NCBI GenBank assembly: GCA_963749105.1
Contig: CAVVLT010000005.1
Coordinates: 160,299-224,298, forward strand
Source of the DNA: Bryobacterales bacterium
Lineage (GTDB): Bacteria > Acidobacteriota > Terriglobia > Bryobacterales > Bryobacteraceae
DNA length: 64,000 nucleotides
Reading direction: 5' to 3'
Shown: positions 11,109-58,555 of the stretch, in pieces
How the letters are laid out: every line of letters starts with the position of its first letter
Numbering within the stretch: position 1 is the stretch's first letter
Notes under the pieces: generated by a model
The model's database searches: none
What the model was told of the DNA's origin: nothing
Seen by the model: only the letters and a program-made list of their open reading frames with translations
Program-made: the position numbers and the translations under genes

Positions 11109-11291
11109 CCCGTTCCCATAAGATATCGCGGCGACTCGATTAGCGAGTGAATACGTGGCGAATCAACGACGGCAAGTGATAAACCCGATCATGTTAAAGT
11201 CGGCGTCTGCTTGGGTATTCCATTTGTTTCGAAATTGCGCTCAGTTTCCTCAAGGTACTTAGCGAGGTTGGATTGATTATCCAGGTAAAGT

Positions 11292-11320
11292 GCTCGGGGA
11301 CTTGGCACAGATCCCCGAGC
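11292..11320 (-). terminator. Hairpin 6 nt downstream of the ppdK stop; possible intrinsic terminator
   Basis: Perfect 9-bp inverted repeat GCTCGGGGA / TCCCCGAGC with an 11-nt loop. The trailing U-tract on the minus strand is only short (ACUUUACC). Confidence 0.4.
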
Positions 11321-11326
11321 CACAAA

Positions 11327-14068: not shown

Positions 14069-14115
14069 TCAGTCTTTGCCTCCCAGTGACGGACTTCCCG
14101 CCACGAAAAAAAATG

Positions 14116-16101
14116 TCAGGCGCTTGCGCCTTGCGTTACGATTTCGGAAAAGTCGGCGATGGTCGAGAACTCCGTCAACAGGCTATGCAGCAAAGCCAAG
14201 CGGTTCTCACGGATCGCCGGATCTGGATCGTTCACTAGAATCTTATCGAAGAAGAGATCCACCTGCGGCCTCAAAGAGGCAATTTGGGCGAGTTTTTCGC
14301 GATAAATTGCGGTCGCTTGTGTCGCCGCGCACACTTTTACGAATGCCTGGTATAGTTCTTGCTCGGGACCCGGAACCAGTAAGTCAGGGTTAGGCGGGTT
14401 TGCCTGAGTAAGTTGCGCTTGCTTGAGTATGTTCTTGATGCGTTTGAAGCTGGCGGCGAGGGGCTCGAAGTTAGCGGTTGGGCGGACATTGTGAACGGCT
14501 TCGGCGCGGTCGGCGAGATCGGGGAGCGTGGTGTAACCGGCGGCCATCACAGCATTGACTTCGTCGTACGCGTAACCACGTGCATCTTTCAAATAGAATT
14601 GGATGCGCTCCTGCATGAAGGGCAGTAGTGCGGGGATGTCGGCCACATACTTTTTCAGATCGACCGGCAGCTTGGCTTCAAACAGGATCTTGACGACGCC
14701 TTGCGCGGCTCGGCGTAAGGCGAAGGGATCTCCCGACCCTGTAGGGATCATGCCAACGCGGAAGCATTCGCGCAAGGTATCTAGCTTGTCGGCAGTCGAA
14801 ACCACTTGCCCTTCGAGCGTGCGCGGAATCGGCGCTTCCATGCCGACGGGTTGGTAATGATCGTAGATGGCGTTAGCCACGGCATCAGTTTCACCTTGCG
14901 CCTTCGCGTAAAGGCCACCGACGACGCCTTGTAACTCGGTGAACTCTTTGACCATGTCGGTAGTCAGATCGGTTTTGGCAAGCAGTGTGGCCTGGTCCAC
15001 GGTATTTTGATCTGCACCCAAGGCGTGTGCGATTTGCTGGGCGAGGATGCGAACACGTTCCGTTTTGTCTTTGTAGCTGCCGAGCTTGGCTTGAAATGTA
15101 ACTTTTTCTAAGTCGGCCACACGCGCAGAGAGCTTCCTCTGTTGATCAACCTGCCAGAAGAAGCGGGCATCGTTGAAGCGGGCGCGCAAGACGCGTTCGT
15201 TGCCTTGGCGAATCAAACCGTCGGGATCGCCGTCGGTATTCGTAACTGCCACAAACTCGGGCGCCAGCGACCCGTCGGCATTCACAACCGAGAAATAGCG
15301 CTGGTGATGACGCATCACCGTCGACAGAATTTCCTTCGGCAGTTCCAGGAAAGATTTGTCAAAGCTGCCGCGAATCGGGGTAGGGAACTCCGTCAGATAG
15401 ACAAGGGTGTTGAGTAACTCGGCGTCCTTCTGAACGTCCGGCCGCAGAGCTTTTTCAATGCGGGCTTTGCGTTCTTCGGCAGAAACGATGACGAAGTTCG
15501 CGCGCAAGGCTTGAACGTAGGTATTGATACCTACCAAGAGCGGCGCTTTTGAGCCGATAATGCGATGGCCCCGAGTGATGTTGTCGGACTTCACGCCGGC
15601 GATTTCAATGGGAATGATTTGATCGTCAAGTAGCGCTACTATCCAACGGATTGGGCGAATAAACTTGACACCGCCTTTGCCGGTCCAATACATGGTCTTT
15701 GGAAAGTGAATGCCGGTGATGACCTCGGGCAGTTTTTCACTGAGAGCCTGAGCGGCCGCTTGGCCTTTCACCAGTTGATTGAAGAAGTACCGCTCTCCTT
15801 TGGCATCGGACATTTTGGCGAGCTTGTCCACCGTCGTCTGCTGCTTGCGTGCGAACCCCTCGGCGGCTTTTTCGCCTGCGGATAGATAGGGCCCTTGCAC
15901 CACCACTTCCGCATCGGCTGCTTGTCCGATCAAATCGCGTGCCTGCAAAAGCAGCCTTCTTGGGGTCGCATCGGTGGTAATCGCCGAACCTTCAAACGCT
16001 CCAAACGCTGCCGCGAAACGCTTGTGCAAATCTGCGAGCGCTGGCTCAATCATCCAATCGGGAATCTCTTCGACGCCGATCTCGAGTAGAAAGTTTGCCA
16101 T
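14116..16101 (-). CDS. glyS: Glycine-tRNA ligase beta subunit
   Basis: 661 aa, starting immediately after the glyQ stop. N-terminus MANFLLEIGVEEIPDWMI is typical of GlyS. Confidence 0.93.
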   Translation of the reverse strand: MANFLLEIGVEEIPDWMIEPALADLHKRFAAAFGAFEGSAITTDATPRRLLLQARDLIGQAADAEVVVQGPYLSAGEKAAEGFARKQQTTVDKLAKMSDAKGERYFFNQLVKGQAAAQALSEKLPEVITGIHFPKTMYWTGKGGVKFIRPIRWIVALLDDQIIPIEIAGVKSDNITRGHRIIGSKAPLLVGINTYVQALRANFVIVSAEERKARIEKALRPDVQKDAELLNTLVYLTEFPTPIRGSFDKSFLELPKEILSTVMRHHQRYFSVVNADGSLAPEFVAVTNTDGDPDGLIRQGNERVLRARFNDARFFWQVDQQRKLSARVADLEKVTFQAKLGSYKDKTERVRILAQQIAHALGADQNTVDQATLLAKTDLTTDMVKEFTELQGVVGGLYAKAQGETDAVANAIYDHYQPVGMEAPIPRTLEGQVVSTADKLDTLRECFRVGMIPTGSGDPFALRRAAQGVVKILFEAKLPVDLKKYVADIPALLPFMQERIQFYLKDARGYAYDEVNAVMAAGYTTLPDLADRAEAVHNVRPTANFEPLAASFKRIKNILKQAQLTQANPPNPDLLVPGPEQELYQAFVKVCAATQATAIYREKLAQIASLRPQVDLFFDKILVNDPDPAIRENRLALLHSLLTEFSTIADFSEIVTQGASA

Positions 16102-46359: not shown

Positions 46360-47229
46360 GTGTCTCGTAAATATTACTCTGCAAAAATCAGCACCAATCA
46401 TCGATGGCTTATCCGCGTTCTCTTGGCATGCACAGTCGCTGGTCTGTCCATTCTTTCTTCACAAGAGCCCGATGCAACGCGCCAGCGCCCTCCTGCGGGA
46501 CGCGGTTCTACGCGTGAGTTTCTCGGCCTGGGCCCGGCTCCCGATGCTGCCGCTGCCAAGAAAGGCGAATCTCTCTATAAACAGAATTGCGCGGCGTGCC
46601 ACGGAGAGACAGCGCGCGGAGCGCAAGGCCCTAATCTGGTGCGTTCGGTAGTGGTTCTGCATGACGAGAAAGAAAACGAAATTGGTCCGGTCATTAAGAA
46701 CGGGCGTCCGCAGGCAGGAATGCCGCCGTTCCCTCAACTCTCGGCAGACGACATCCACAACATTTCTGAATACATTAAGCTGCAAGTCGAACAGGCAGCT
46801 AACCGCGGCATCTACAATCAGATCTATGCCGGATCGAAAAACGCGCTTCGCGGCGACCCCAACAAGGGAAACGAATTCTTTCAGGCCCATTGCCGCGGCT
46901 GTCATTCCGCCGCGGGTGATCTGGCGAAGATCGGCGCAAAGTTCCCCGAAGCTTCCTTGATGCAGAGCCGCTTCCTCTGGCCCGCATCCAAAGAACCTGA
47001 GCGCGCTACGGTCTCAACTCCATCGGGCGAAAGCGTCACCGGTTCTATCGTCAAACTCGATGACTTCGACGTCGCGCTGCGCGATTCCAATGGAGAGTAT
47101 CATTATTGGCCAAGATCACAGGTGAAGGTGAGCGTTGTGGACAATTTGCAAGGGCACCGTTCGCTTTTACCGATCTACACTGACGCTGACATACATAACG
47201 TAACCGCCTATTTGGAGACTCTGAAATGA
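46360..47229 (+). CDS. Dihaem c-type cytochrome with a C-terminal non-haem beta-rich domain (partner of PQQ dehydrogenase 1)
   Basis: 289 aa with a signal/anchor helix WLIRVLLACTVAGLSIL. Haem sites CAACHGE and CRGCHS. C-terminal block SGESVTGSIVKLDDFDVALRD...DIHNVTAYLETLK is shared with the 48888 gene. 4-nt overlap with the next gene. Confidence 0.85.
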   Translation: MSRKYYSAKISTNHRWLIRVLLACTVAGLSILSSQEPDATRQRPPAGRGSTREFLGLGPAPDAAAAKKGESLYKQNCAACHGETARGAQGPNLVRSVVVLHDEKENEIGPVIKNGRPQAGMPPFPQLSADDIHNISEYIKLQVEQAANRGIYNQIYAGSKNALRGDPNKGNEFFQAHCRGCHSAAGDLAKIGAKFPEASLMQSRFLWPASKEPERATVSTPSGESVTGSIVKLDDFDVALRDSNGEYHYWPRSQVKVSVVDNLQGHRSLLPIYTDADIHNVTAYLETLK

Positions 47230-48848
47230 TTGGGCTCTCAAGAGTTCTCATTCTGGCCACATCACTGAGTGGCATCCTCAGCGCGCAACTTCTGGACCCC
47301 GCCGCGCTGACCCTGTTCAACCAACCCCCAAATGTCTGGCCCACCTATAACGGAGATTATTCCGGACGACGCTTTAGCAGCCTTAGCGAGATCAATCAAG
47401 CCAACGTAAATCTTCTGAAGATTGAATGGGCCTATCGCATTTCCGGTATCGGGCCGCAAAGAGGAGTGGGCGCGCCAACCATCAAGTCGACGCCGTTGAT
47501 GGTGAATGGCGTTCTTTACTTCACTATTCCCGACCATGTTTTCGCGCTCAATGCAATAACGGGCGCATTGCTCTGGCAGTTTGACTTTGAAGACCACGGC
47601 GGACATTTAATTGGTCAGCGCGGCGTGGGCATGTATGGCAACTGGCTCTATTTCTTGACGCCCGACGGCTGGTTCATTTCGCTGAACGCCAAGGATGGCA
47701 AGGAGCGCTGGCGGCATAAAGTTGCCGACGAGAAGCTGCAATACTTCACAACCATGTCGACCATGATCGTCAAGAACCATGTGTTGGTAGGAGTGGGCGG
47801 CGATGCAATGGATGTGCGCGGCTATCTCGAAGCGCATGATCCGGAAACCGGCGCGCTGCAGTGGCGTTGGTGGAGTGAACCCCAAAAGATGGGGGATCCC
47901 GGATCGGAGACTTGGCCGAACCAGGCAGCCATGGACCACGGAGGTGGTATGACTTGGCTTCCTGGCACGTATGATCCCGAACTGAACTTACTGTACTGGG
48001 GAACGGGCAACGCGAATCCTGTATTCGCCGGCCAAGGCCGGCAAGGCGCAAATTTGTATACGGCGTCTATTGTCGCGCTCAACGCCGATACCGGCAAACT
48101 GGTCTGGTGCTTTCAGGCCTCTCCGCACGACACGCATGATTGGGATAACGTCGAAACTCCGGTTTTATTCGACGCAACGATAGATGGGAAGCCGCGTAAA
48201 CTTCTCGCACAGGGCGCGCGCTGCGGCTGGTTTTTTGTGCTCGATCGCACGAATGGTCAAAATTTAGTTTCGAAACCCTTTACCGGAACCGGCAACTGGG
48301 CAAAGGGAGTGGATAGCAAAGGCCAACCGATTCCCGATCCCGCAAAGGAACCTCAAGTAGACGGATCCATGATCGATATGCCAGCCATGGGAGCCACCAA
48401 TTGGCCGCCCCCCAGCTACGATCCGCAGACAGAACTGTTCTATTTGAATGGCACCGAAGGCTACGGAGTGGCTTACCTTTACGACACATCTCCTGAGCCC
48501 GCAGGTTATGGTGGCGGCGGCGGAGGCAACTTTGACACGCGATCCAGTTTGTTCGCGATAGACATTCGCACCGGCAAAATTAGCTGGAAGCATTCACACC
48601 AGAGCATCGCTTCGAGAAACGATGGGGGCATGAGCGGCGGAATTTTAACCACAGCGGGCCATCTTTTGTTTACCGGAGATTCGGGGCAGTTCGTGGCGTT
48701 CGACCCTGCCGGCGGCAGCATCCTGTGGCACCAGCGGCTCACGGCGGCCTTAAGCAATGGTCCGTCGACGTATATGTTGGGCGGCAAGCAATACATCATC
48801 GCGGGCGCGGGCGATACGCTCTACGCTTTGACGCTGGCGGGTAAGTAA
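47226..48848 (+). CDS. PQQ-dependent dehydrogenase, eight-bladed alcohol-dehydrogenase-like family (divergent)
   Basis: 540 aa with a signal peptide. WPTYNGDYSGRRFSSLSEINQANV, DHGGGMTWLPGTYDPELNLLYWGTGN and SPHDTHDWD are colinear with quinoprotein ADH/MDH signatures. Confidence 0.85.
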   Translation: MIGLSRVLILATSLSGILSAQLLDPAALTLFNQPPNVWPTYNGDYSGRRFSSLSEINQANVNLLKIEWAYRISGIGPQRGVGAPTIKSTPLMVNGVLYFTIPDHVFALNAITGALLWQFDFEDHGGHLIGQRGVGMYGNWLYFLTPDGWFISLNAKDGKERWRHKVADEKLQYFTTMSTMIVKNHVLVGVGGDAMDVRGYLEAHDPETGALQWRWWSEPQKMGDPGSETWPNQAAMDHGGGMTWLPGTYDPELNLLYWGTGNANPVFAGQGRQGANLYTASIVALNADTGKLVWCFQASPHDTHDWDNVETPVLFDATIDGKPRKLLAQGARCGWFFVLDRTNGQNLVSKPFTGTGNWAKGVDSKGQPIPDPAKEPQVDGSMIDMPAMGATNWPPPSYDPQTELFYLNGTEGYGVAYLYDTSPEPAGYGGGGGGNFDTRSSLFAIDIRTGKISWKHSHQSIASRNDGGMSGGILTTAGHLLFTGDSGQFVAFDPAGGSILWHQRLTAALSNGPSTYMLGGKQYIIAGAGDTLYALTLAGK

Positions 48849-48887
48849 ACATCCGAGGGTCAAATGCTGGTAACGTAAGAATATTCA

Positions 48888-49964
48888 ATGACATTCACAA
48901 GTGCCTGCGTCCTGCTGCTTGCTGGTTTCATCCCCTTTTGCGCTTTCGCACAATCACCCGGCCCGCAATTACCCGACGCGCCGAATCGAGAAACCGTTCA
49001 ACGCATATGTTCATCGTGTCATCCTGCCCAAATTATTCTTGGGCGCGGCATGACTCGCGAACAGTGGGGCGCCATCGTTTCGAACATGATCAGCCGTGGG
49101 GCTAAAGGCTCGGACGAAGAGTTCGCGCAAGTTGTCGATTATCTCGCCAAGAATCTGCCCCTTACTAAGGGGGCGGGCATTCCAACGGCGCAAACCAAAG
49201 CGCCGCGCCCTCCGAACCTCATTGACCAGGCAGGCGCCAACGACAAGCAGGTAGTAGACGACGATGCGGCAGCGCGCGGCAAGACCGTGTACATCGCTGA
49301 GTGCATCACCTGCCATGGAACGAAAGCGCGCGGCGGCGAGCGCGGGGCAGACCTGGTGCGATCGTTGGTGGTTCTTCACGATCGCTATGGCAGCACCATC
49401 GGACCTTTTCTGGCAAAAGGCCATCCAGAGGGAAAATCGCTCGCACTCACGCAGGACCAGATTGTGGATCTCTCTCACTTCCTGCACCAGCAAGTGGGCA
49501 ACACACTGCGAACCGGGCCCTTTAACAGCGTGCTCAATGTTTTGATCGGAGATCCCAGAGAAGGAAAGGCTTTCTTCAACGGACCTGGAAAATGCAGTGA
49601 ATGTCACTCGACAACCGGCGATTTAGCTCACATCGCCAGCAAATATGATCCCCCCGTTTTGCAGTTGAAAGTGGTTTTTCCGCAGACGGCCGCTTTCGGC
49701 CGCCGAACTGCGGTAAACTCACGCAAGCCGGTCACCGTGACGGTAACCACTTCCTCGGGCGAAAGCGTAACCGGCGTGCTGGACGAAATCGACGATTTCA
49801 GTGTGTCCTTGCACGACGATTCAGGCCGCTATCGCAGTTTTCAACGCGGGCCTGGAGTCAAGGTCGAGAAACACGATCCGTACGCCGGTCACGTTGCGCT
49901 GCTCGATGAATATACCGATAAAGATATTCACGACGTGGTTGCTTACCTGGAGACCTTTAAATGA
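48888..49964 (+). CDS. Trihaem c-type cytochrome with a C-terminal non-haem domain (partner of PQQ dehydrogenase 2)
   Basis: 358 aa with a signal peptide. Haem sites CSSCHP, CITCHG and CSECHS. C-terminal block SGESVTGVLDEIDDFSVSLHD...DIHDVVAYLETFK. 4-nt overlap with the next gene. Confidence 0.85.
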   Translation: MTFTSACVLLLAGFIPFCAFAQSPGPQLPDAPNRETVQRICSSCHPAQIILGRGMTREQWGAIVSNMISRGAKGSDEEFAQVVDYLAKNLPLTKGAGIPTAQTKAPRPPNLIDQAGANDKQVVDDDAAARGKTVYIAECITCHGTKARGGERGADLVRSLVVLHDRYGSTIGPFLAKGHPEGKSLALTQDQIVDLSHFLHQQVGNTLRTGPFNSVLNVLIGDPREGKAFFNGPGKCSECHSTTGDLAHIASKYDPPVLQLKVVFPQTAAFGRRTAVNSRKPVTVTVTTSSGESVTGVLDEIDDFSVSLHDDSGRYRSFQRGPGVKVEKHDPYAGHVALLDEYTDKDIHDVVAYLETFK

Positions 49965-51550
49965 AGTTTCTTTCCGTAATATTGTTGACGCTGCTTCCTC
50001 TTCTAGCTGGGCCTGACGCCGCTCCAGGAGGTGGCATGGATCCTTCCGTCCTGTTGCATCCTCCGATTGACTCCTGGCCCACCTATAACGGCGATTACTC
50101 GGGCCGGCGTTTCAGCAGCCTGACTAAGATCAACGATCACAATGTCAAATCGTTGAGCCTCGCTTGGATGTATCAACTCCCAGGCGGTGGCGACTCTTCC
50201 GGCGGGCGCATTTCGGCAACCCCGCTGTTAGTCAATGGGGTTATGTATTTCACCGTGCCCGATAAAGTTTGGGCCATTGACGCGCTCAGCGGCCGCCAGA
50301 TCTGGAGTTACACGTGGACCTCCAAAGGAGGCATTCACCTGGGCAATCGAGGCGTCGGCATTTCCGGCAATTCGCTCTATTTCGAAACGCCGGATTGCAA
50401 TCTTGTCTCGCTCAATTTGAATGATGGCAAGAAGCGCTGGAATCAGGCGATCTGCGATCTGGATCAGATGTATTATGCCTCCGTCGCTCCCGTCGTAATC
50501 AAGAATCACATCATTACAGGCGTCAGCGGTGACGATCTGGACCGCCCTGGCTATTTGGAAGCACGAGATCCCGAAACAGGCGATCTGCAATGGCATTGGT
50601 CAGTCGTCCCCAAGCCTGGTGAACCGGGCTCCGAAACATGGCCGAACGCAGATGCCATGGAGCATGGCGGTGGTATGACGTGGCTGTCTTGCACTTATGA
50701 CCCGGATTTGAACATGCTGTTCGTCGGCACTGGTAATCCCCAGCCGGTGATTGCGTCCAAAGGTCGCGAAGGCGCTAATCTTTTCACCGAATCGATTGTG
50801 GCCCTCAATGCCGATACCGGCAAAATGGTTTGGTATTTTCAGCCTTCCCCGCATGACACCCACGACTGGGACGCCATTCAGACGCCCGTTCTCTTTGACG
50901 GTGAGATCGACGGAAAGAAGCGCAAGCTAGTGGCACAAGCGAGCCGCAATGGATGGTTTTTCGTGCTTGACCGCGAAACCGGGAAGAATTATGTCAGTTC
51001 CCAATTTGTGAAAACGAACTGGGCCAAAGGTGTAGATGCCAAAGGTCAGCCCATACCTAATCCAGCCAAGGAGCCGCAGATTGCCGGTGCGCTGGTCTCA
51101 CCCAATCAAGGAGGCGCCGCTAATTGGATGCCGCCCTCGTTTAGTCCGGCGACCGGCTTGTTTTACATCAACGCCACGCGTGCCTTCAGCATCTACTACA
51201 TTTTTGACACCGACGACAAGCCAGAGGGATGGGGCGGCAATGACCAGGGTGGCTGGGCGGAGTCGATGCTGGAAGCCCTAGACTACCGCACGGGCAAAGT
51301 CCGCTGGAGTCACAAATGGGAGACGCCGGGCATTCGCGGGGGATTGCTAAGCACCGCCGGTAATCTCGTGTTTGCGGGTGATCCGAGCAACAATTTTGTT
51401 GCACTGAATGCTACAACTGGCGAGCCGCTATGGCATGCCAACCTCGGTAAGTCTGTCTCGAACGGCGCGATCACTTACGAACTCGACGGCCGCCAATATG
51501 TGGTTGTGGGCGCAGGCGACAAATTATTTGCTTTCGTCATGAATCAATAG
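49961..51550 (+). CDS. PQQ-dependent dehydrogenase, paralogue of 47226..48848
   Basis: 529 aa. WPTYNGDYSGRRFSSLTKINDHNV, EHGGGMTWLSCTYDPDLNMLFVGTGN and SPHDTHDWD. Colinear with the upstream paralogue. Confidence 0.85.
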   Translation: MKFLSVILLTLLPLLAGPDAAPGGGMDPSVLLHPPIDSWPTYNGDYSGRRFSSLTKINDHNVKSLSLAWMYQLPGGGDSSGGRISATPLLVNGVMYFTVPDKVWAIDALSGRQIWSYTWTSKGGIHLGNRGVGISGNSLYFETPDCNLVSLNLNDGKKRWNQAICDLDQMYYASVAPVVIKNHIITGVSGDDLDRPGYLEARDPETGDLQWHWSVVPKPGEPGSETWPNADAMEHGGGMTWLSCTYDPDLNMLFVGTGNPQPVIASKGREGANLFTESIVALNADTGKMVWYFQPSPHDTHDWDAIQTPVLFDGEIDGKKRKLVAQASRNGWFFVLDRETGKNYVSSQFVKTNWAKGVDAKGQPIPNPAKEPQIAGALVSPNQGGAANWMPPSFSPATGLFYINATRAFSIYYIFDTDDKPEGWGGNDQGGWAESMLEALDYRTGKVRWSHKWETPGIRGGLLSTAGNLVFAGDPSNNFVALNATTGEPLWHANLGKSVSNGAITYELDGRQYVVVGAGDKLFAFVMNQ

Positions 51551-51630
51551 AGCGAGGGTTGTATGCCTTCGTGCTCCCGCGACTGCTCAACTCGTGTCCC
51601 CAGTCGTGCGCAACGCAGCCGGTGCCAAGC

Positions 51631-51996
51631 TCAAAGCTTCTTTGTCAACTTGTTCACGATGGTGGTCACCTGCGCTTCACTAGCATCCTCAATCAAGATC
51701 AAAAGCAAGTCTGTCTGCGACCAATCCTTCCAGATACGGCGCAGTATCTCTAAGCCTCCCCCAGAGCCCAGCCCTATCACGCCCGCTGCGACCCGCACCT
51801 TCTGCGACTCGGAGGACAGCAACATCACGACGCACAGAATCAACCCGCACACCACCAAGCCGGTAACAAATAGGAAAATGCGATATTCCCGCTGGCGGTG
51901 CTTGCGTAGCGCCTGCTTGACCTTCAAGGAAGCCGAACCGCCCGCTTTGAGAAATTCACCTGCTGAGTTGCTGAGGACGTCCTTTAGATTTGCCAT
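51631..51996 (-). CDS. Small membrane protein, last gene of the orphan four-gene cassette
   Basis: 121 aa with a basic N-terminal segment (KVKQALRKHRQREYR), one clear TM (IFLFVTGLVVCGLILCVVMLL), a Gly-rich weakly hydrophobic segment (VAAGVIGLGSGGGLEIL) and a C-terminal helix-like tail. Its ATG at 51996 lies 41 nt inside the 3' end of the upstream gene. No family recognised. Confidence 0.5.
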   Translation of the reverse strand: MANLKDVLSNSAGEFLKAGGSASLKVKQALRKHRQREYRIFLFVTGLVVCGLILCVVMLLSSESQKVRVAAGVIGLGSGGGLEILRRIWKDWSQTDLLLILIEDASEAQVTTIVNKLTKKL

Positions 51997-52909
51997 TGTG
52001 GTTAGCCAGTAGCCTTTTCATCTCATTTCGAAGGATCTGAACAACAATGCCCCGAGCTTCCAGGTAGCCGAAGTTGCCCGTAGTCAATAGGCCCAGGGTG
52101 TCGGCAATGCACCTCGCAGCCCACACAAATTCAATCTCATTGGCGAACTGAATTGTGCGGATACTGTGCTGCCGCCGCGAGGCAATATAATCGGCCGGTA
52201 TTGTGGAGGTGCATACAGGCAAGTCCAGGACCCCCTTGAAGGTTGGCGCTATCGCCTCCTCCAGCGCCTCTTTCGTCTGCATTTTATCGTAGAGTTCCAG
52301 ACGATTCCCTTGTCTTAGCAACTCCGCGAACAGCTCGTTCAGTTGTTCGCGGATGCGGGCGTGACGGGTAACAGCATGCTCTAAGATCAGGGTGCCCTCA
52401 GCGCTCCTGCTGCTTGCGGGGGCGTAATCCAGCGCAGCCGCAAAGATCTTGACCAATTGAGAAATATCCGGGCCGGCAAGGCTAAGCTGCGAGCGAAGCC
52501 AAGCTGATAAGTCATCCTGATTGCTCGCGAGCCGGGCCATGAAGGGCAACGTCGAATCATGCTCGCTGAAATCCTCAAACGTAACCTCCGGCCCTTTCCA
52601 GTGTGCAAACAAGATGGCGATCTGTTTGGCCTCGGTAATCGACCGTACATCCTGTAAAGTTGCGTCGCGACATACCATTGCCCCGGCGGCCGATGCTAAG
52701 TCGAGCACTTTGCAAACCGGGTCGGCAACCAGTTCTCGATACTCAAGCTCCCAGCGGCAACGCAAATACTTCTCCCGCTCTTCCGCGTCTAGATCGCGAT
52801 CGAAATACTTCGCCAGCCAGTCCGATTCGCCAGCGCGTGATCGGAAACCATCCCAGGTCAAAGGGATTGCGACGGCGATCCCCACATCCCGGAGTTCGCT
52901 AACGGACAA
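51956..52909 (-). CDS. Hypothetical protein with a possible CHAT/caspase-like His-Cys arrangement
   Basis: 317 aa. TTG start at 52909, 6 nt after GGAGG inside the end of the upstream gene. By-eye resemblance to CHAT: a strand followed by His (TLILEHAVTRH, His178/183; alternatively AILFAHW, His103), then GNRLELYDKMQTKEALEEAI....GVLDLPVCTS (Cys233), then EIEFVWAARCIADTLGLLTTGNFGYLEA. Not verified by any search. Confidence 0.45.
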   Translation of the reverse strand: MSVSELRDVGIAVAIPLTWDGFRSRAGESDWLAKYFDRDLDAEEREKYLRCRWELEYRELVADPVCKVLDLASAAGAMVCRDATLQDVRSITEAKQIAILFAHWKGPEVTFEDFSEHDSTLPFMARLASNQDDLSAWLRSQLSLAGPDISQLVKIFAAALDYAPASSRSAEGTLILEHAVTRHARIREQLNELFAELLRQGNRLELYDKMQTKEALEEAIAPTFKGVLDLPVCTSTIPADYIASRRQHSIRTIQFANEIEFVWAARCIADTLGLLTTGNFGYLEARGIVVQILRNEMKRLLANHNGKSKGRPQQLSR

Positions 52910-55622
52910 GCGTCCCCTCCGCTAACTGATGCCTATTCAAGGACATCAAAGTCCGTGTTTCGCCGTTCTGGACAATCACTGAGAATCGCCGCACTTTGAT
53001 ATCGGACATTTGCCGCAGCTCATTGCGTACTGTCATGGCGTATTGCGCTATGCTCCCCTGCTTGGCGGCGGCCGAGCTCAAACTCTTTTCGTGGCTGGCC
53101 ACAAGGCGAGCGCCTCCCGCCGCATACTCACGATCGTCGAAACCCGCAACGACGGACACATCGATGGCCGGGTCTCTCGTTGAGGTGCCGCGGAATTTCA
53201 GTGAAACTGCCGCGGGCCTGCCGTCCCGGTTCGCATCCCAACCAATGTCTTTAACAAACCTCCCCACTTGGCCGGTCTCCATCGTTTGCACCTCGACACC
53301 TCTCCAAGTAGCCGCCGTTTCGTTGACCGTTATGCGCCCAAATAGCGCCTTAACGCGAGATTCAGTGACCCTCCCAATAGACCGGAGCCATGATTCGCGG
53401 CCGTTCAGGTCTCTTTGCGCCAGTCCGTCCAAGCGCGCTTCGGGTTCCCCCGAGGTGCGCTCTCCCAGCAGCTCAGCCATACTCGTTAGCCTAGTTTCAC
53501 TGTTGCTCTCCAGCCCGATGCCAAGCGCACGAACGTGACTCTCCGGGGTATCGAAGAAAATGACCGCTCGTTCTCCCGCGCCTTTTCGGTCAGAGACCGA
53601 CTTCAAATAATCGCCTAATGAGGGCGTGTCGCGGATCTCGTAAACGATTACTGCCGGTGGCGGTTTCAGGTTTTGTTCAGTCGCGAAAGCAACTTCTTCC
53701 TGGTCGTGCGCAATAAAGATGCAGCAATCGTTCTTTTCCGCGATCGATCGTAGATCGTCCACAAATCCCTGCTTGTTCACATACGTCCGCTTCCCGATCC
53801 GTCCCGCCCATGTGGCGCGCTCGGCTGGCGAATTCGGTAGCTCCAGCGCGGCAAAACGCGTGCGCACCGGCGGCGGCGCACTCGAAGCAATTCTTGCCAG
53901 TTCATCCACGTCCCGTATCCGCTGGTGCTCCACCGCCCGCGCCAGCTCCGCTGCATGTGCTTCCACTTGCGACGCTTTAGCGGGGTTGTATTCCAATACG
54001 TAGCCCTTTTCCGATTCCTTCAGCGCGAAGCCGCTTACCGAGGCATTCGGCTTCAGTTCTAAAGCGCGGGCATCGATATTGTGACCTCCGATGGCCTCAA
54101 TATCATTGCGGTCCCAGGAAACGACAATCGACGGCGTTTTGATACAACCGGCAGGCTCGTAAACGTGCTTCTGGACAAATTCGTAGCGCACGTTTTCCAG
54201 GTCTCCATAAGCCATTGCGACTCTCCAAAGCAACTTCGACAGGCTGGTTATTGGATTTTGCTGCTTCTCTGCTGTCGCTAAGTCCTTATAAGTCGCTTCC
54301 AGTTCCTTACGGCGCTGAGCCAATTCTGCTCGCTTAAGGGCGATCGTGAGCTCACTCCCGTGTGGATTCGTGACCATTGCGTTGAAAAGCCTGACGTCGG
54401 CATCAAACTGATCGGTCTGCTTTTGCAGTTGGGCTTCCTGGCTCTCCAATTTAGCCGCTCTTGCTCTCTCAATGCGTGTTGCATCGTCGGAGAAGCGGTC
54501 TGCCAGAACGTTTGCAAGCTGTCGCGGCGATAGGCCCGGAAACGTCTGCCGCACTGCTTCCAACAGAGCCGTGAACTGCTGTTTCGTGGAAGGTTTGAGG
54601 CGAAGATTGCCAGATTCGATGTCGTTTAGCAGCCCATATGTGTACTCCGAACGAACTTGGGCTGCTTTCCGATTTGCAAGAACTCCCTCGCTGCTTGCCA
54701 TGCCGAGGTTTTTCGCCAGCGTGTTCTGCCCCCGGCTTTGCGTAATGGCGCGGCAAAACTGATAAAGCAGGGTGTACTGCACCACGCGTTCGAGGTTGGA
54801 GTCGCGGAGCTTGGCAAAGTACTTGTAGGCCGTCTCCTCCTCGGGCAGAAGCTTCCCGGCAGCCGTGTTATCAGACCCAAGCATGTCTGATCCATAAGTG
54901 ACGGGCAGAGCTCCTGTCTGACGCGACGTCAAAACTTTGCCTGACGTCCCCTCCACCACAACTGCGGAGCCTGAGGTGTTCCAGTTGAAGAGAACTTGCG
55001 TACTGCCGGTTTCTTTTTGAATAACCCTGCTGAGCGGCATAGCGCCAAATGGAAATGTTGCCGGTTTAGGGTAATTAAAGTAAAGGTACTCGGTGCTGCC
55101 TGCCTCCGACCACGATTTCAGCATCTGGTCGGTCGTGTTGAGCAGAGCGCCAAACTCAGAATCTATCAGCGGATCGCTCAAATAGATCGGAGCCCAGTCC
55201 TTACCCCGGTACTCACCTGCTGACAACCTGCCTGCGAATAAAGCCGTGCGCTCATAACTTTGCGACAGTTCATCTGACGACTGCGAGGCGACAAGCTGAA
55301 AAGTTTCAAATCGCAGGGGCGGAAGTTTAGACAAATCGTTCGTGCGTGGCCTGCCCACAATGGCCACTTGACCACCCGGAGAAACCAGCGCGCCAATCAG
55401 TGCGTCGCTCGCCACCGCAAAGCAGCGGAATGGTAGTCGCAGCGGCTCCAGCACCGTCGGATTCTCTTGCGCGCGAAGCAATAACGAAGACGGAAATGTC
55501 AGTAAAACCAGCGTCCGATCGCCTGTAACAAAAGCGCCCATCGTGTGCGACTTAGCAATGGCCGGCCACGTTGTGCTGCCCCCGGTGTTTCCATCCAAAG
55601 CGCTCCCAGGAATTCGTCGCAC
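52899..55622 (-). CDS. Large orphan protein (~880-907 aa) with a central coiled-coil
   Basis: Long uninterrupted ORF. The start is either GTG 55622 (71-nt overlap with the upstream gene) or ATG 55541 (10 nt after the upstream stop). Central heptad-like region (ERARAAKLESQEAQLQKQTDQFDADV...LKRAELAQRRKELEATYKDLATAEKQQ). No Walker, HExxH, nuclease or other motif recognised. Its stop overlaps the next gene's start by 11 nt. Confidence 0.6.
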   Translation of the reverse strand: MRRIPGSALDGNTGGSTTWPAIAKSHTMGAFVTGDRTLVLLTFPSSLLLRAQENPTVLEPLRLPFRCFAVASDALIGALVSPGGQVAIVGRPRTNDLSKLPPLRFETFQLVASQSSDELSQSYERTALFAGRLSAGEYRGKDWAPIYLSDPLIDSEFGALLNTTDQMLKSWSEAGSTEYLYFNYPKPATFPFGAMPLSRVIQKETGSTQVLFNWNTSGSAVVVEGTSGKVLTSRQTGALPVTYGSDMLGSDNTAAGKLLPEEETAYKYFAKLRDSNLERVVQYTLLYQFCRAITQSRGQNTLAKNLGMASSEGVLANRKAAQVRSEYTYGLLNDIESGNLRLKPSTKQQFTALLEAVRQTFPGLSPRQLANVLADRFSDDATRIERARAAKLESQEAQLQKQTDQFDADVRLFNAMVTNPHGSELTIALKRAELAQRRKELEATYKDLATAEKQQNPITSLSKLLWRVAMAYGDLENVRYEFVQKHVYEPAGCIKTPSIVVSWDRNDIEAIGGHNIDARALELKPNASVSGFALKESEKGYVLEYNPAKASQVEAHAAELARAVEHQRIRDVDELARIASSAPPPVRTRFAALELPNSPAERATWAGRIGKRTYVNKQGFVDDLRSIAEKNDCCIFIAHDQEEVAFATEQNLKPPPAVIVYEIRDTPSLGDYLKSVSDRKGAGERAVIFFDTPESHVRALGIGLESNSETRLTSMAELLGERTSGEPEARLDGLAQRDLNGRESWLRSIGRVTESRVKALFGRITVNETAATWRGVEVQTMETGQVGRFVKDIGWDANRDGRPAAVSLKFRGTSTRDPAIDVSVVAGFDDREYAAGGARLVASHEKSLSSAAAKQGSIAQYAMTVRNELRQMSDIKVRRFSVIVQNGETRTLMSLNRHQLAEGTLVR

Positions 55623-56238
55623 CGTCCATCCACTGCCGCACCTCGCGGGTGGTGACCTGTAGGTTTGGCGCTGCGACTGCCTTCAAGTTGAAATGGTTGT
55701 CCGCATCGATATCAAAGCCGCCGCCGAAAGTGGTGCCGAAAAGTGCCAGGTACAAAAAAGCGATCCGGTCTCGAAGTACCGGGTCTGACATTAGATTTCC
55801 CGCACTCGGCCAGCTGCGAACAGTCAATACGACATCCTCCAACCAGCCATCCACGCCCAATCTCCAGCGGAATCTGTTGAGCGCGACCAAGTCTTTTCCA
55901 AAAGCGGCTCTGATCAGACGGTCAAGCCGTCCTTTCGACATAACCGGAGCCGGTTCAGAGATGAAGATCGCCAACGTTCCGCCAGCAAGCGGCCGTCCCT
56001 CTATGGATTGGTATGGAAATGGATGATTCGACCGAAACTGCGTCCATGCTTGACAAGAAAGATCGCCAACAGGGCACGCATACTGATAGGCCGCCGCGGT
56101 AGAACGGTTCAACCAGTCCTGTTGCGAGGCAACGCTGGTTGCGCCTATGCACAAAGAAACTACAACCGACACCGCTAACCCGCGTAATTTTCGTCCCCGA
56201 TCGCCTCTGCTTTTGTACAAATTTGCTTTCACCAACAC
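55552..56238 (-). CDS. Hypothetical secreted protein, first gene of the orphan cassette
   Basis: GTG at 56238, 8 nt after a strong AAGGAGG, giving (M)LVKANLYKSRGDRGRKLRGLAVSVVVSLCIGATSVASQQ, a signal peptide. The tracked ATG at 56382 adds a leader with no Shine-Dalgarno. 228 aa. No family recognised. Confidence 0.55.
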   Translation of the reverse strand: MLVKANLYKSRGDRGRKLRGLAVSVVVSLCIGATSVASQQDWLNRSTAAAYQYACPVGDLSCQAWTQFRSNHPFPYQSIEGRPLAGGTLAIFISEPAPVMSKGRLDRLIRAAFGKDLVALNRFRWRLGVDGWLEDVVLTVRSWPSAGNLMSDPVLRDRIAFLYLALFGTTFGGGFDIDADNHFNLKAVAAPNLQVTTREVRQWMDGATNSWERFGWKHRGQHNVAGHC

Positions 56239-56431
56239 GACTAATGCCTCCTTCTCAGTCGCAAGCTGTGAAAATCCGAGCACGCAAATGTCCATCGAAT
56301 ACGGCAAACAACGCAAATTTAGTTTGCAAGCTGAACGGAGTGCCAAGAGCGCCATGCGCACAACGAAGCATGAAAGGAGCAAAAAGCGTGAACCAAAAGG
56401 ATAATTGCGACCGCTTTATGGTTAACGTATT

Positions 56432-56456
56432 TAAATCACTTAAAGGCAGTGATTTA
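56432..56456. other. Perfect 9-bp hairpin/palindrome in an AT-rich patch of the 440-nt divergent intergenic region
   Basis: TAAATCACT (56432-56440) / AGTGATTTA (56448-56456) with a 7-nt loop TAAAGGC. It lies between the cassette start (56238) and the sugar dehydrogenase start (56681). Function unknown; an operator or an RNA element are both possible. Confidence 0.3.
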
Positions 56457-56680
56457 TTGAGCGCTTCTGCTTGACGGGCCTCGTATGCCGTGCAAGTTGG
56501 CGGTTGGGGCAGCAACGTATCGGCGTGAACAATATGGTTTAGCCAGTGACGCACTGGGGCTTGGCTCTGGAGGACTGAGCCGTGCGGAATATACTAAGTT
56601 CGTGCGTAAGCAATGCGGTTAGCCCCTCAATACTGATCACTGCCTATCCGGAAGCCGCAATCCTTACCATCACTCATCTA

Positions 56681-58555
56681 ATGAAAACGAATCATTCAGC
56701 GCGCACAGCGGTCATGCCGATCGCCTTTTTGATCCTTGGATTGGGATTGGCGCAGGACGGCCCGGAGACGGTCACGCGAGGGACGAAACAATTCCGCAAG
56801 AGTGTGTTGGTATCCGGGCTTGCGGGCCCGTGGGAATTGACTTGGGGACCGGATAGCATGCTTTGGGTGACTGAGCGAACCGGCAAGCGGATTACGCGCA
56901 TCGATCCGGCTAGCGGCAAGGGCAGCGTCGCGATCACCATCGATGAGGTTTCCGCCCCCGGCGGCCAGGACGGTTTGCTGGGTATGGCACTACACCCGGA
57001 ACTGCTGGCAAATACTGGTAACAATTATGTCTATGCGGCCTACACTTACGTCGACCGAAACAAGGGAGCCAACCAGTTCTTCCCCGATCCCAACAGTCCG
57101 TATCGCTATCTCTATGGAAAGATCGTGCGTCTGAGTTATGACAAGACGAATGGCATACTCTCCAACCCCGTAGATCTGATTACGGGGTTACCGGTAGGCG
57201 ATGACCACGTCTCTGGACGTCTTAAGATCGGCCCTGATAGGAAGTTATATTTCACCGTCGGCGATGAAGGGCACAACCAGATGGGAAATTCCTGCTTGCC
57301 CATTGAATCTCAGCGCCTGCCGACCCAGCACGAGATTGATCGCAAGGTCTACGAGGCCTATGTGGGTAAATCGCTGCGACTGAACCTGGATGGCTCCATC
57401 CCTGCCGACAATCCGAAACTGGCCGGCGTTGTCAGCCATGTCTATACGTATGGTCACCGCAATATGCAAGGCATCGATTTCGGGCCGGAAGGAACACTCT
57501 ATGCTTCCGAACAGGGTCCAAAGACCGATGACGAGATCAATATTTTGAAGCCGGGCGCCAACTATGGTTGGCCCAATGTTGCGGGTATGAAGGACAACAA
57601 GGCCTACGAGTACGCTCGCTGGGCCGACTCCTCCACGCCCTGCTCACAACTGACTTACACTTTCAGCAACGACATTCCGCCGTCTGTGCCGCGTGACCCG
57701 GAATCGGCTTTCAAAAAGCCGTTCGAGGAGCCGATTGCCACTATGTTCACCGTGCCCACGGGCTTCAATTTCGAGGACCCGGCCTGTAAGGGTGTTGACT
57801 TCATCTGTTGGCCCACGGTGGCCGCTTCAAGCATCGAGTACTACGCCTCGCAAGGCAAAGGCATTCCAGGTTGGGACAAGGTTCTGCTGGTGACCACCCT
57901 GAAGCGCGGCTCGCTTTATGTGCTTCCGCTGACTGCCGACGGAAAGGCTGCAGCCGGTCACTTTTCGCGGTACTTTCAGAGCGAGAACCGTTATCGCGAT
58001 ACGGCGGTCAGTCCCGATGGCAGGACAATCTACATCGCTACCGATCCGGGAGGTCTTGCAGAAGGACTGAACGGCGGATTGGCTGAGAAGATGCAGAACC
58101 CCGGGGCCATTCTGGCATTTACTTACGTGGGCGAAGGGTCCGGTGCGCCGAGCAGCGTGGGCCCTACCGCCACCAGCCAAACGAGTGTCACCACCGGGCC
58201 TGCTGCGATCACCGGCGTCTCTGGGGATGAGCCGCCACAGTTCACCGCCGAACAGGCCATTGCGGGCAAAACGGCCTTTGATTCCAAGTGCGCGTCTTGC
58301 CACGGCAACACGCTTGCCAACGGCACGTTCGGCCCACCGTTGGCCGGCCCGTACTTTCGTAATAAATGGGTCGGTCAGACTGTTCGGGCATTTTACGATC
58401 ATTCGAAGACCATGCCGCCATCCGCTCCTGGTTCGCTGCCAGACGACACGTATGTGAACATCATGGCGTACGTGCTGAAGGTCAACGGGTTCAAGGCCGG
58501 CAATGCCAAACTGCCGGTCGATGGGGATGCGCTCGGCAAGATGACAATTCGCTAG
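56681..58555 (+). CDS. PQQ-dependent sugar (glucose/sorbosone) dehydrogenase beta-propeller fused to a C-terminal cytochrome c domain
   Basis: ATG at 56681 gives signal peptide MKTNHSARTAVMPIAFLILGLGLAQ. LWVTERTGKRITRID, HVSGRLKIGPDRKLYFTVGDEG and YGHRNMQGIDFGPEGTLYASEQGPKTDDEINILKPGANYGWP are sGDH-family signatures. C-terminal haem site CASCHGN. Confidence 0.88.
   Translation: MKTNHSARTAVMPIAFLILGLGLAQDGPETVTRGTKQFRKSVLVSGLAGPWELTWGPDSMLWVTERTGKRITRIDPASGKGSVAITIDEVSAPGGQDGLLGMALHPELLANTGNNYVYAAYTYVDRNKGANQFFPDPNSPYRYLYGKIVRLSYDKTNGILSNPVDLITGLPVGDDHVSGRLKIGPDRKLYFTVGDEGHNQMGNSCLPIESQRLPTQHEIDRKVYEAYVGKSLRLNLDGSIPADNPKLAGVVSHVYTYGHRNMQGIDFGPEGTLYASEQGPKTDDEINILKPGANYGWPNVAGMKDNKAYEYARWADSSTPCSQLTYTFSNDIPPSVPRDPESAFKKPFEEPIATMFTVPTGFNFEDPACKGVDFICWPTVAASSIEYYASQGKGIPGWDKVLLVTTLKRGSLYVLPLTADGKAAAGHFSRYFQSENRYRDTAVSPDGRTIYIATDPGGLAEGLNGGLAEKMQNPGAILAFTYVGEGSGAPSSVGPTATSQTSVTTGPAAITGVSGDEPPQFTAEQAIAGKTAFDSKCASCHGNTLANGTFGPPLAGPYFRNKWVGQTVRAFYDHSKTMPPSAPGSLPDDTYVNIMAYVLKVNGFKAGNAKLPVDGDALGKMTIR

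Follow-up and report, generated by a model that had tools for sequence, protein, structure and literature searches.

A conserved three-gene locus in a Bryobacterales genome as a candidate membrane-spanning conflict module

In a 64,000-nucleotide stretch of the genome of a Bryobacterales bacterium (GenBank assembly GCA_963749105.1, contig CAVVLT010000005.1, positions 160,299 to 224,298), a block of about 4.6 kb on the minus strand encodes a very large protein, a middle-sized protein (g3) and a small protein (g4). The whole stretch is called the window here, and all positions are counted from its first letter. The initial annotation of the window had described the block as a cassette of four translationally coupled orphan genes, with a possible role in protease-centred defence. 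In the present analysis the block was compared with its relatives in other genomes, which led to a different gene count and to a tentative reading of the locus as an immune or conflict module that spans the membrane.

Gene layout and a frameshift in the large gene

Four open reading frames had been annotated as separate genes at this locus, and all four are present on the minus strand at the positions given for them (Table 1). However, the first two are the N- and C-terminal parts of a single protein of about 1,100 amino acids, which homologues have in one piece. When 'gene 2' was used as the query, 219 homologues were returned, nearly all of them about 1,100 amino acids long and about 220 amino acids longer than the query, and 'gene 1' aligns with the N-terminal 200 or so residues of the same proteins (63% identity to P0001 over residues 14–214, 45% to P0005 and 36% to P0050 from Burkholderia ubonensis). 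A relative that is 89% identical to the window (L003) carries one intact gene for 1,096 amino acids, followed by genes for 317 and 121 amino acids. The DNA alignment of the window with this relative reads GAGCGCTTTGGATGG against GAGCGC-CTGGATGG, with one extra T in the window, and in-silico deletion of one T at 55597–55599 yields a single open reading frame of 1,112 codons, the product of which is 88.9% identical over 1,097 amino acids to the L003 protein. Because homologues span both parts, L003 is intact and removal of the T restores the reading frame, 'gene 1' and 'gene 2' are one gene. The cassette thus consists of three genes, and the two parts are halves of one gene of about 1,110 codons, which is called the big gene below.

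The reading frame of 'gene 1' ends with 14 out-of-frame codons, and the similarity of 'gene 2' to the full-length proteins starts at about 55600, though its frame is open from 55622. The translational coupling that had been proposed at the junction of the two is a frameshift instead, caused by the extra T and gone when this base is taken out, so that four translationally coupled genes could be ruled out. Programmed frameshifting was ruled out as well, as the shift is not present in the 89%-identical relative.

The other start signals stood up as described. The big gene has its AAGGAGG-GTG start, g3 begins at a TTG behind a GGAGG, and its start overlaps the stop of the big gene by 11 nucleotides, and the ATG of g4 lies 41 nucleotides inside g3. 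Identical overlaps of 11 and 41 nucleotides were found in L003.

Unless the extra base is a sequencing error, the copy in the window is probably inactive. A contig with 99% identity and the same flank (L060) stops short of the frameshift site. Splits into two or three open reading frames were also seen in other metagenome-assembled copies, in the big gene of L009, L050 and L055 and in the g3 of L007. Recurrent pseudogenisation or indel errors of long-read assemblies are possible causes of these splits, which are relevant to the frameshift in the window.

Table 1. Positions of genes, start signals and invariant codons of the cassette in the window
Feature	Position	Strand	Remarks
Big gene (single large gene)	52899..56238	(-)	~1,112 codons after frameshift removal; both window open reading frames covered by homologues
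'Gene 1' of the initial annotation, N-terminal fragment of the big gene	55552..56238	(-)	signal peptide, conserved Cys pair, first alpha/beta domain
'Gene 2' of the initial annotation, C-terminal ~890 amino acids of the big gene	52899..55622 (or 55541)	(-)	frame open from 55622
Frameshift site, TTT with one extra T	55597..55599	(-)	DNA alignment to 89%-identical relative L003
AAGGAGG ribosome-binding site of the big gene	56247..56253	(-)	8 nucleotides before GTG at 56238; read from sequence
GGAGG ribosome-binding site of g3, within final codons of the big gene	52916..52920	(-)	read from sequence
Middle gene g3, 317 amino acids	51956..52909	(-)	TTG start at 52909, GGAGG 6 nucleotides before
Small gene g4, 121 amino acids	51631..51996	(-)	ATG at 51996
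Invariant His103 codon of g3, motif FAHWKG, end of strand 97-101	52601..52603	(-)	
Invariant Glu205 codon of g3, motif GNRLEL	52295..52297	(-)	
Invariant Cys233 codon of g3, motif LDLxxCTS, end of strand 227-230	52211..52213	(-)	

Three protein families and exchangeable partner domains

A scan of 185,579 species genomes with three peptide patterns identified 53 loci, a figure that is a lower bound. The gene families occur together and in the same order in at least eight phyla (Acidobacteriota, Pseudomonadota, Desulfobacterota, Cyanobacteria, Bacteroidota, Gemmatimonadota, Myxococcota and Planctomycetota), so that the co-occurrence check that had been suggested for them gave a positive result. 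The order of big gene, g3 and g4 was found, for instance, in Burkholderia ubonensis (LPMZ01000113.1, an intact operon at about 448.4–453.1 kb on the reverse strand), in a metagenome-assembled genome (MAG) of Desulfomonilaceae, in Methylomonas, and in a cyanobacterium in which g3 and g4 are fused. In 45 of the 48 loci with readable flanks, g3 comes immediately after the big gene, 43 of these loci being recognised by profiles and two more (L034 and L045) by the core profile; five other loci end at the big gene. A g4 gene follows g3 or is fused to it in about 38 loci, as judged by the family profile. Intact copies are present in cultured Burkholderia, Paraburkholderia, Bradyrhizobium, Methylomonas and Sorangium.

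The flanking genes are unlike in every lineage, even between the window and its 89%-identical relative, and this lack of any relationship among the flanks means that the three genes are passed on together. The earlier description as a cassette of orphan proteins was borne out, and the cassette is self-contained and co-inherited. None of the three families has a match beyond noise in Pfam (2025), NCBIfam (2026), PADLOC (2023) or PHROGs, which were searched with all open reading frames and many family members, and Pfam, PADLOC and NCBIfam gave no credible match for any of the four open reading frames of the window, as had been supposed. Sequence-profile searches of the PDB with four alignments returned coiled-coil or transmembrane noise only. 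In the literature, no description of the trio was found, and the EACC1-caspase system is the closest described logic.

The big protein carries a hydrophobic segment at its N-terminus in 83 of 90 homologues. The type of anchor differs by lineage and resembles a cleavable signal peptide (as in the window, where the signal peptide reported for 'gene 1' is a signal-peptide-like N-terminal segment), a lipobox (LAGC, LSGC, LSAC and others) or a long signal-anchor, and big proteins of Bacteroidales have cytoplasmic-type Zn-ribbons and a basic stretch ahead of a transmembrane segment. A Cys pair right behind the anchor is nearly invariant. Because of the hydrophobic N-terminus, the lipoboxes, the Cys pair and the variants with Zn-ribbon and transmembrane segment, the body of the big protein is predicted by standard topology rules to lie outside the cytoplasm. 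The separate 'secreted protein' of the initial annotation is the N-terminus of this protein, so that the whole chain of about 1,100 amino acids would be extracytoplasmic, in a trans-membrane arrangement rather than as a cytoplasmic sensor-scaffold.

An AlphaFold (AF2) model of the full-length homologue P0001 (69% identical) reached a predicted local distance difference test (pLDDT) of 90.2 and a predicted template modelling score (pTM) of 0.89, and has a number of alpha/beta domains and, in its centre, long helices that form a bundle or coiled-coil region. Foldseek found no match to this model below E 0.08 in the PDB and none below 0.7 in BFVD, and a sequence-profile search of the PDB with the big protein gave coiled-coil noise only. 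The N-terminal two-thirds are conserved and have many invariant polar residues; the C-terminal third differs between subfamilies. A P-loop or STAND NTPase was considered and rejected, as Pfam and NCBIfam detected no such domain, and no P-loop motif was apparent by eye in the consensus, for which no motif scan was made.

The second family, g3, is cytoplasmic as judged from its sequence, because it is devoid of a signal sequence and is fused in relatives to the basic, inward-facing N-terminal end of g4 or to a DUF4062 domain. Its AF2 model (pLDDT 90, pTM 0.87) is an alpha/beta protein. Only His103, Glu205 and Cys233 are invariant in the family, both among 43 close members and among 27 diverse members. 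In the model, His103 stands at the end of strand 97–101 and Cys233 at the end of strand 227–230, which agrees with the layout of strand-His and strand-Cys that had been noticed earlier; the additional candidates His178 and His183 are not conserved. The g3 of the window has a helical insert of about 100 amino acids between His and Glu. Minimal forms of about 200 amino acids without this insert occur in Planctomycetota, Saprospiraceae, Chitinophagaceae and Bacteroidales, and they read hhhhAH[WHG]...vEL.DG....e....iP..f.G.lDL..C.S, which is the layout of small CHAT domains. The search returned 47 homologues, a library of 1.84 billion proteins contains 1,043 clusters of the family at 50% identity, and a further word-indexed protein search with the core g3 alignment added almost nothing.

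A relationship of g3 to CHAT or caspase-fold proteases had been proposed from this layout, and the homology is suggestive but unproven. When the g3 alignment was compared by hhalign with an alignment of 82 genuine small CHAT domains from metagenomes, a score of 20.7 (E 0.021) was obtained over 110 columns, with His placed on His and Cys on Cys; 5 of 200 column shuffles and 14 of 200 block shuffles scored at least as high. Column shuffles scored 13.8±2.6 and unrelated alpha/beta controls 12–14, and the accepted remote pair of TIR and DUF4062 scored 28.6. The Pfam models CHAT and Peptidase_C14 and the chat models of PADLOC had no match at E<=1 in the g3 of the window or in any of 43 family members, and the same searches do pick up genuine CHAT proteins among neighbouring genes. 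No caspase-fold match came from PDB profile searches with the g3 alignments. Foldseek of the g3 model against the PDB gave alpha/beta hydrolases at best (E 0.02, TM ~0.2) and no caspase, metacaspase or CHAT chain in the best 50, a search in which the helical insert of about 100 amino acids may lower the sensitivity. Thus, of the earlier proposal, the invariant His and Cys in a CHAT-like context stood, and the assignment to the CHAT family found no backing in Pfam, PADLOC, PDB profiles or Foldseek and a marginal score in hhalign.

Independent support from gene context is provided by a Phaeodactylibacter MAG (L056), in which a CHAT protein of 562 amino acids (13681–15369) starts 3 nucleotides after the big gene (9890–13678) and thus occupies the slot of g3. 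It matches Pfam CHAT with 32.7 bits (cut-off 24) and is not detected by the g3 profile. The g3 core profile had no match in the roughly 370 residues at its C-terminal end, and Pfam at E<=0.001 gave CHAT only. Another genuine CHAT gene, which adjoins the Sorangium locus, reads FSAHGTKGEALLLHDG...RVVVLNACHS. At this locus in Sorangium cellulosum So ce26 (L030:14022–14990, minus strand), the convergent CHAT protein has 322 amino acids and a C-terminal hydrophobic segment, its gene overlaps the end of g4, and the locus keeps a normal g3. An analogy to gasdermin systems and to type III-E CRISPR had also been drawn. Such a link was ruled out, as neither a gasdermin-family pore protein nor Cas7-11 or other CRISPR components were found in the cassette by Pfam, NCBIfam or PADLOC, and there is no repeat array in 51300–56800.

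The third protein, g4, has no family match in Pfam or the PDB. Its family alignment begins with a basic N-terminal region that contains a near-invariant Gly, followed by a hydrophobic helix and a short loop often with Asp/Asn-Pro, then by a second, Gly-rich hydrophobic segment with an invariant Gly75 and by a conserved amphipathic C-terminal helix (WK..W/K...DL.L.L). One clear hydrophobic helix and a Gly-rich second segment had been pointed out in g4 before, and both are there. By the positive-inside rule, g4 is probably a membrane hairpin whose two ends face the cytoplasm. A bitopic adaptor, the C-terminal domain of which would lie in the periplasm, was considered too, and the second hydrophobic segment in the family alignment makes the hairpin more likely. 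In fusions of g3 and g4 (P0150, P0154, L006, L014 and L028), the C-terminus of g3 is joined to the cytoplasmic N-terminus of g4.

Two further observations concern g4. The near-invariant Gly (in many cases Gly-Gly) precedes the first membrane helix by about 20 residues and corresponds to Gly19-Gly20 in the window (51937–51942); this region could be a processing site or a hinge. A Chitinophagaceae MAG (L027:9896–12239) has a shortened big gene (644 amino acids) that is directly followed by a g4 homologue, and no g3 was detected there.

In other lineages, domains linked to cell killing take the place of g4 or lie next to the trio. Bacteroidales loci have no g4, and in their fusion proteins the g3 domain is followed by an Ig-like domain and, at the C-terminus, by DUF4062. 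The DUF4062 matches (E 1e-13 to 1e-20) exceed the Pfam cut-off and span positions 1–82 of the 82 of the model (1–81 in L045). The big protein of these loci is the form with its own Zn-ribbon and transmembrane segment. DUF4062 has been shown experimentally to be a TIR-like NADase that gives phage defence (bioRxiv 10.64898/2026.05.01.722283; 10.64898/2026.06.25.731849). Among the nearest neighbours, taken as two open reading frames on each side of about 50 loci (142 in total), the commonest Pfam family is TIR_2, which was found in 7 proteins, ahead of transposases. The TIR_2 matches in relatives of the module were at E 1e-14 to 1e-20. Most of these neighbouring TIR proteins consist of a transmembrane segment, an Ig-like domain and TIR. 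In L015, a gene for a protein of this type takes the place of g4; in L055, one lies immediately upstream in the same orientation, and in L017 and L058 such genes adjoin the trio.

A Bacteroidales MAG (L035:7104–16590) combines the two forms in a single operon of five consecutive same-strand genes, which encode a TIR protein with three transmembrane segments, a TIR protein with a coiled coil and three transmembrane segments, the big protein, the fusion of g3, Ig-like domain and DUF4062, and a TIR protein with a coiled coil and one transmembrane segment. A motif in the Ig-like segment of L035 (S.[FY]AP....G..f.vqvf.H) recurs in the membrane-anchored Ig-TIR proteins of L015, L017 and L055. The cassette of the window has neither a TIR nor a DUF4062 domain according to Pfam. 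A core that is conserved, in combination with cell-killing effectors that can be exchanged, would be the signature of a conflict system, in line with the comparative-genomics practice behind such assignments (e.g. Kaur et al. 2020, PMC7159879).

Apart from TIR genes, the defence genes among the neighbours were single matches to PDC-S27, MADS, AriA, PbeA and CHAT. The Methylomonas locus is near SIR2, WYL, IS66 and an integrase, and transposases are near some other loci. The defence-system context that had been proposed fared unevenly: the logic does resemble that of protease-centred conflict systems, and the enrichment in defence islands is modest. Among the PADLOC candidate families, PDC-S66 matched three proteins of the neighbour set (E 2e-8) and PDC-S27 one (E 2e-196); the proteins that match PDC-S66 may be those with transmembrane segment, Ig-like domain and TIR.

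Proposed pathway, alternatives and related systems

The reading we favour, tentatively and with slightly less than even confidence, is that the block is a copy of a conserved three-component immune or conflict module that spans the membrane and combines envelope sensing, a protease-like transducer and swappable effectors. The big protein would be located in the periplasm or on the outward-facing side of the membrane, held by a signal-anchor, by a lipid anchor or, in Bacteroidales, by its own Zn-ribbon and transmembrane segment, and it would be the sensor of an envelope event or a component that acts on the envelope. From there, a signal would be passed to g3 via a membrane-spanning partner, which may be g4, the transmembrane segment of the TIR proteins, or the big protein's own transmembrane segment and Zn-ribbon. 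As the transducer, the middle protein would most likely act as a protease, which the signal from the envelope turns on and which frees or activates the effector. The g4 hairpin would tether g3 and fill the effector slot, and it might harm the membrane once released or activated. In lineages with Ig-TIR or Ig-DUF4062 proteins in this slot, the output would be NAD+ destruction and cell arrest.

A more elaborate form of this pathway, which we regard as rather less likely than not, resembles Toll-like receptor signalling. A receptor of novel fold outside the cytoplasm would sense an attack on the envelope (for example phages that adsorb or eject their DNA, damage to the cell wall, or the weapons of competitors) and would signal across the inner membrane to a highly divergent protease of the caspase/CHAT type, which would then release the hairpin effector or the membrane-anchored TIR/DUF4062 NADases.

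Several points speak against an immune module of this kind. The big gene of the copy in the window is frameshifted (+1). For big proteins that are lipoproteins or are cleaved and periplasmic, the short periplasmic loop of g4 is the sole candidate path by which a signal might cross the membrane, a mechanism that is hypothetical. The many invariant polar residues of the big protein fit an enzyme better than a variable sensor. The CHAT/caspase identity of g3 is not established, given that Pfam, PADLOC, PDB profiles and Foldseek were all without a caspase match and that the hhalign score was also attained by shuffled alignments. The flanks contain mostly ordinary metabolic genes, and defence matches among the neighbours are few apart from the TIR genes. 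A tblastn search of the big protein against known plasmids and phages gave no match, and PADLOC-DB v2 had no model match for the four open reading frames of the window or for eight divergent relatives, apart from one chance-level match to SduA (E 0.015, 12.7 bits) in L028.

Some of these points would suit a trans-envelope housekeeping or stress-signalling module, in which the giant protein monitors or remodels a structure of the envelope and g3 together with the hairpin relays or processes the signal, as in the regulated proteolysis of envelope stress responses. The extracytoplasmic location of the big protein, its strongly conserved N-terminal two-thirds with many invariant polar residues, the neighbourhoods, most of which are metabolic rather than defence islands, and the failure to find plasmid or phage copies agree with this view. 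However, a housekeeping role is rather improbable in view of the rare and patchy distribution (at least 53 of 185,579 species genomes by three peptide patterns), the flanks that are unlike even in close relatives, and the recurrent coupling to NADase domains of the TIR and DUF4062 types, immune effectors that kill cells; neither a transcription factor nor a sigma/anti-sigma partner is conserved alongside the module. The big protein might also be the active agent itself, a secreted or surface toxin or an envelope-degrading enzyme against competitors, with g3 and g4 as immunity or maturation factors. That the protein is exported, large, without a fold match and equipped with enzyme-like invariant residues, that its C-terminal third differs between subfamilies, and that the downstream genes are tightly coupled would agree with such an agent. 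Yet many homologues are lipid- or membrane-anchored and hence not released, and the conserved part is the N-terminal two-thirds and not a C-terminal tip, the reverse of polymorphic toxins. Toxin, secretion-system and immunity families were not detected, and the invariant His/Glu/Cys site of g3 and its fusions to TIR-like NADases are unlike an immunity protein, which makes a toxin very doubtful.

Whatever the role of the family elsewhere, it is quite possible, though we lean slightly away from it, that the cassette in the genome of the window is a decaying pseudogene remnant without a current function, and this would be compatible with each of the other readings. The big gene is split by the +1 frameshift, the downstream fragment would be devoid of an export signal, and several other metagenome-assembled copies (L007, L009, L050 and L055) have a split big gene or g3. 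On the other hand, only a single base is affected in a locus that is otherwise intact and 89% identical to an intact relative, no further stops or frame-breaking indels are found in the big gene, g3 and g4 are intact, and assemblies commonly contain erroneous single-base indels of this kind. The 99%-identical contig L060 breaks off short of the site and hence is not decisive.

Among known systems, the favoured conflict module can be compared with CHAT/caspase modules such as SAVED-CHAT in CBASS, TPR-CHAT in type III-E CRISPR and protease-gasdermin pairs. As in these, a His precedes a Cys and each ends a hydrophobic strand, the spacing from His to Cys is about 33–45 residues in the minimal g3 forms, the motif 'vEL.DG....e....iP' between the two resembles that of genuine small CHAT domains, and an effector protein is encoded alongside. 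The alignment by hhalign sets both catalytic positions in register, and a true CHAT protein replaces g3 in L056. In contrast to CHAT proteins, g3 has an additional invariant Glu and, in the form of the window, a helical insert of about 100 amino acids, and no caspase-fold match was obtained for it with Pfam, PADLOC, PDB profiles or Foldseek. Its partner is an exported giant, whereas that of the CHAT modules is a cytoplasmic sensor of nucleotides or RNA, and no gasdermin, SAVED or CRISPR part is present.

The EACC1-caspase system is a two-gene membrane system with a 5' gene for a small protein that has a single conserved Gly-rich transmembrane helix, followed by a 3' gene for a caspase-superfamily protein (Kaur et al. 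2020, PMC7159879). Compared by description, it shares with the module a small membrane protein with a helix patch of Gly or other small residues next to a caspase-like protein, variable effector domains that are attached, and a proposed logic in which a signal at the membrane activates the caspase domain and effectors are deployed by proteolysis. However, EACC1 is encoded by the 5' gene and has one transmembrane helix, whereas g4 is encoded by the 3' gene and has two hydrophobic segments with the invariant Gly75 in the Gly-rich one. There is no giant exported partner in the EACC1 system, and g4 has no Pfam match to any family.

Systems based on TIR or DUF4062 (Thoeris with ThsB-type TIRs; the DUF4062 proteins Swarozyc and Evangelion) are linked to the module by those relatives that carry TIR_2 or DUF4062, either fused to g3 or as adjacent membrane-anchored proteins. 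Unlike them, the effector slot in the window is filled by a protein with two transmembrane segments and neither domain. Swarozyc and Evangelion are single cytoplasmic proteins, and Thoeris acts through a ThsA partner, which is not present here.

Zorya ZorAB and Kiwa KwaAB resemble the module as proposed in that sensing falls to a component in or at the envelope, with an output in the cytoplasm or membrane. Their envelope parts are a MotAB-type stator in the case of ZorAB and a polytopic membrane protein in that of KwaA; the envelope component here is an exported protein of about 1,100 amino acids, which has no sequence or fold relationship to Zorya or Kiwa according to PADLOC and to Foldseek against the PDB.

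None of the closest systems, whether EACC1-caspase, CHAT-based or TIR/DUF4062-based, has a giant exported component, and there is a real chance that the module is the founding member of a separate class in which sensing takes place outside the cytoplasm. Nearly all characterised bacterial immune systems sense infection in the cytoplasm, and the module, if the favoured reading is true, would allow sensing at the envelope. With it would come three families of proteins that are unannotated in databases, two of them with confident models that have no fold match, and the recurrent coupling to TIR ties it to a deep evolutionary theme that is common to animal and plant immunity. As the module is compact and intact copies exist in cultured bacteria, it is directly testable.

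Surroundings of the cassette in the window

The cassette had been thought to be an insertion. Its neighbours do differ in relatives. However, the typical marks are missing in the window, where neither flanking repeats nor a tRNA nor a shift in guanine-cytosine (GC) content was found, the GC content of the cassette being that of its flanks. Scans for promoters, terminators, Rfam families, tRNAs and flanking repeats likewise revealed no regulatory RNA and no mark of insertion. An imperfect inverted repeat of 22 nucleotides (82% complementary) has one arm at 55543–55564, at the junction of 'gene 1' and 'gene 2', and the other at 52687–52708 within g3, and is probably due to chance.

On one side, the cassette is bordered by a cluster of pyrroloquinoline quinone (PQQ) dehydrogenase and cytochrome c genes (47226–51550), and on the other by a PQQ-type sugar dehydrogenase with a cytochrome c domain (56582–58555). 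The same PQQ cluster adjoins g4 in the 99%-identical contig L060.

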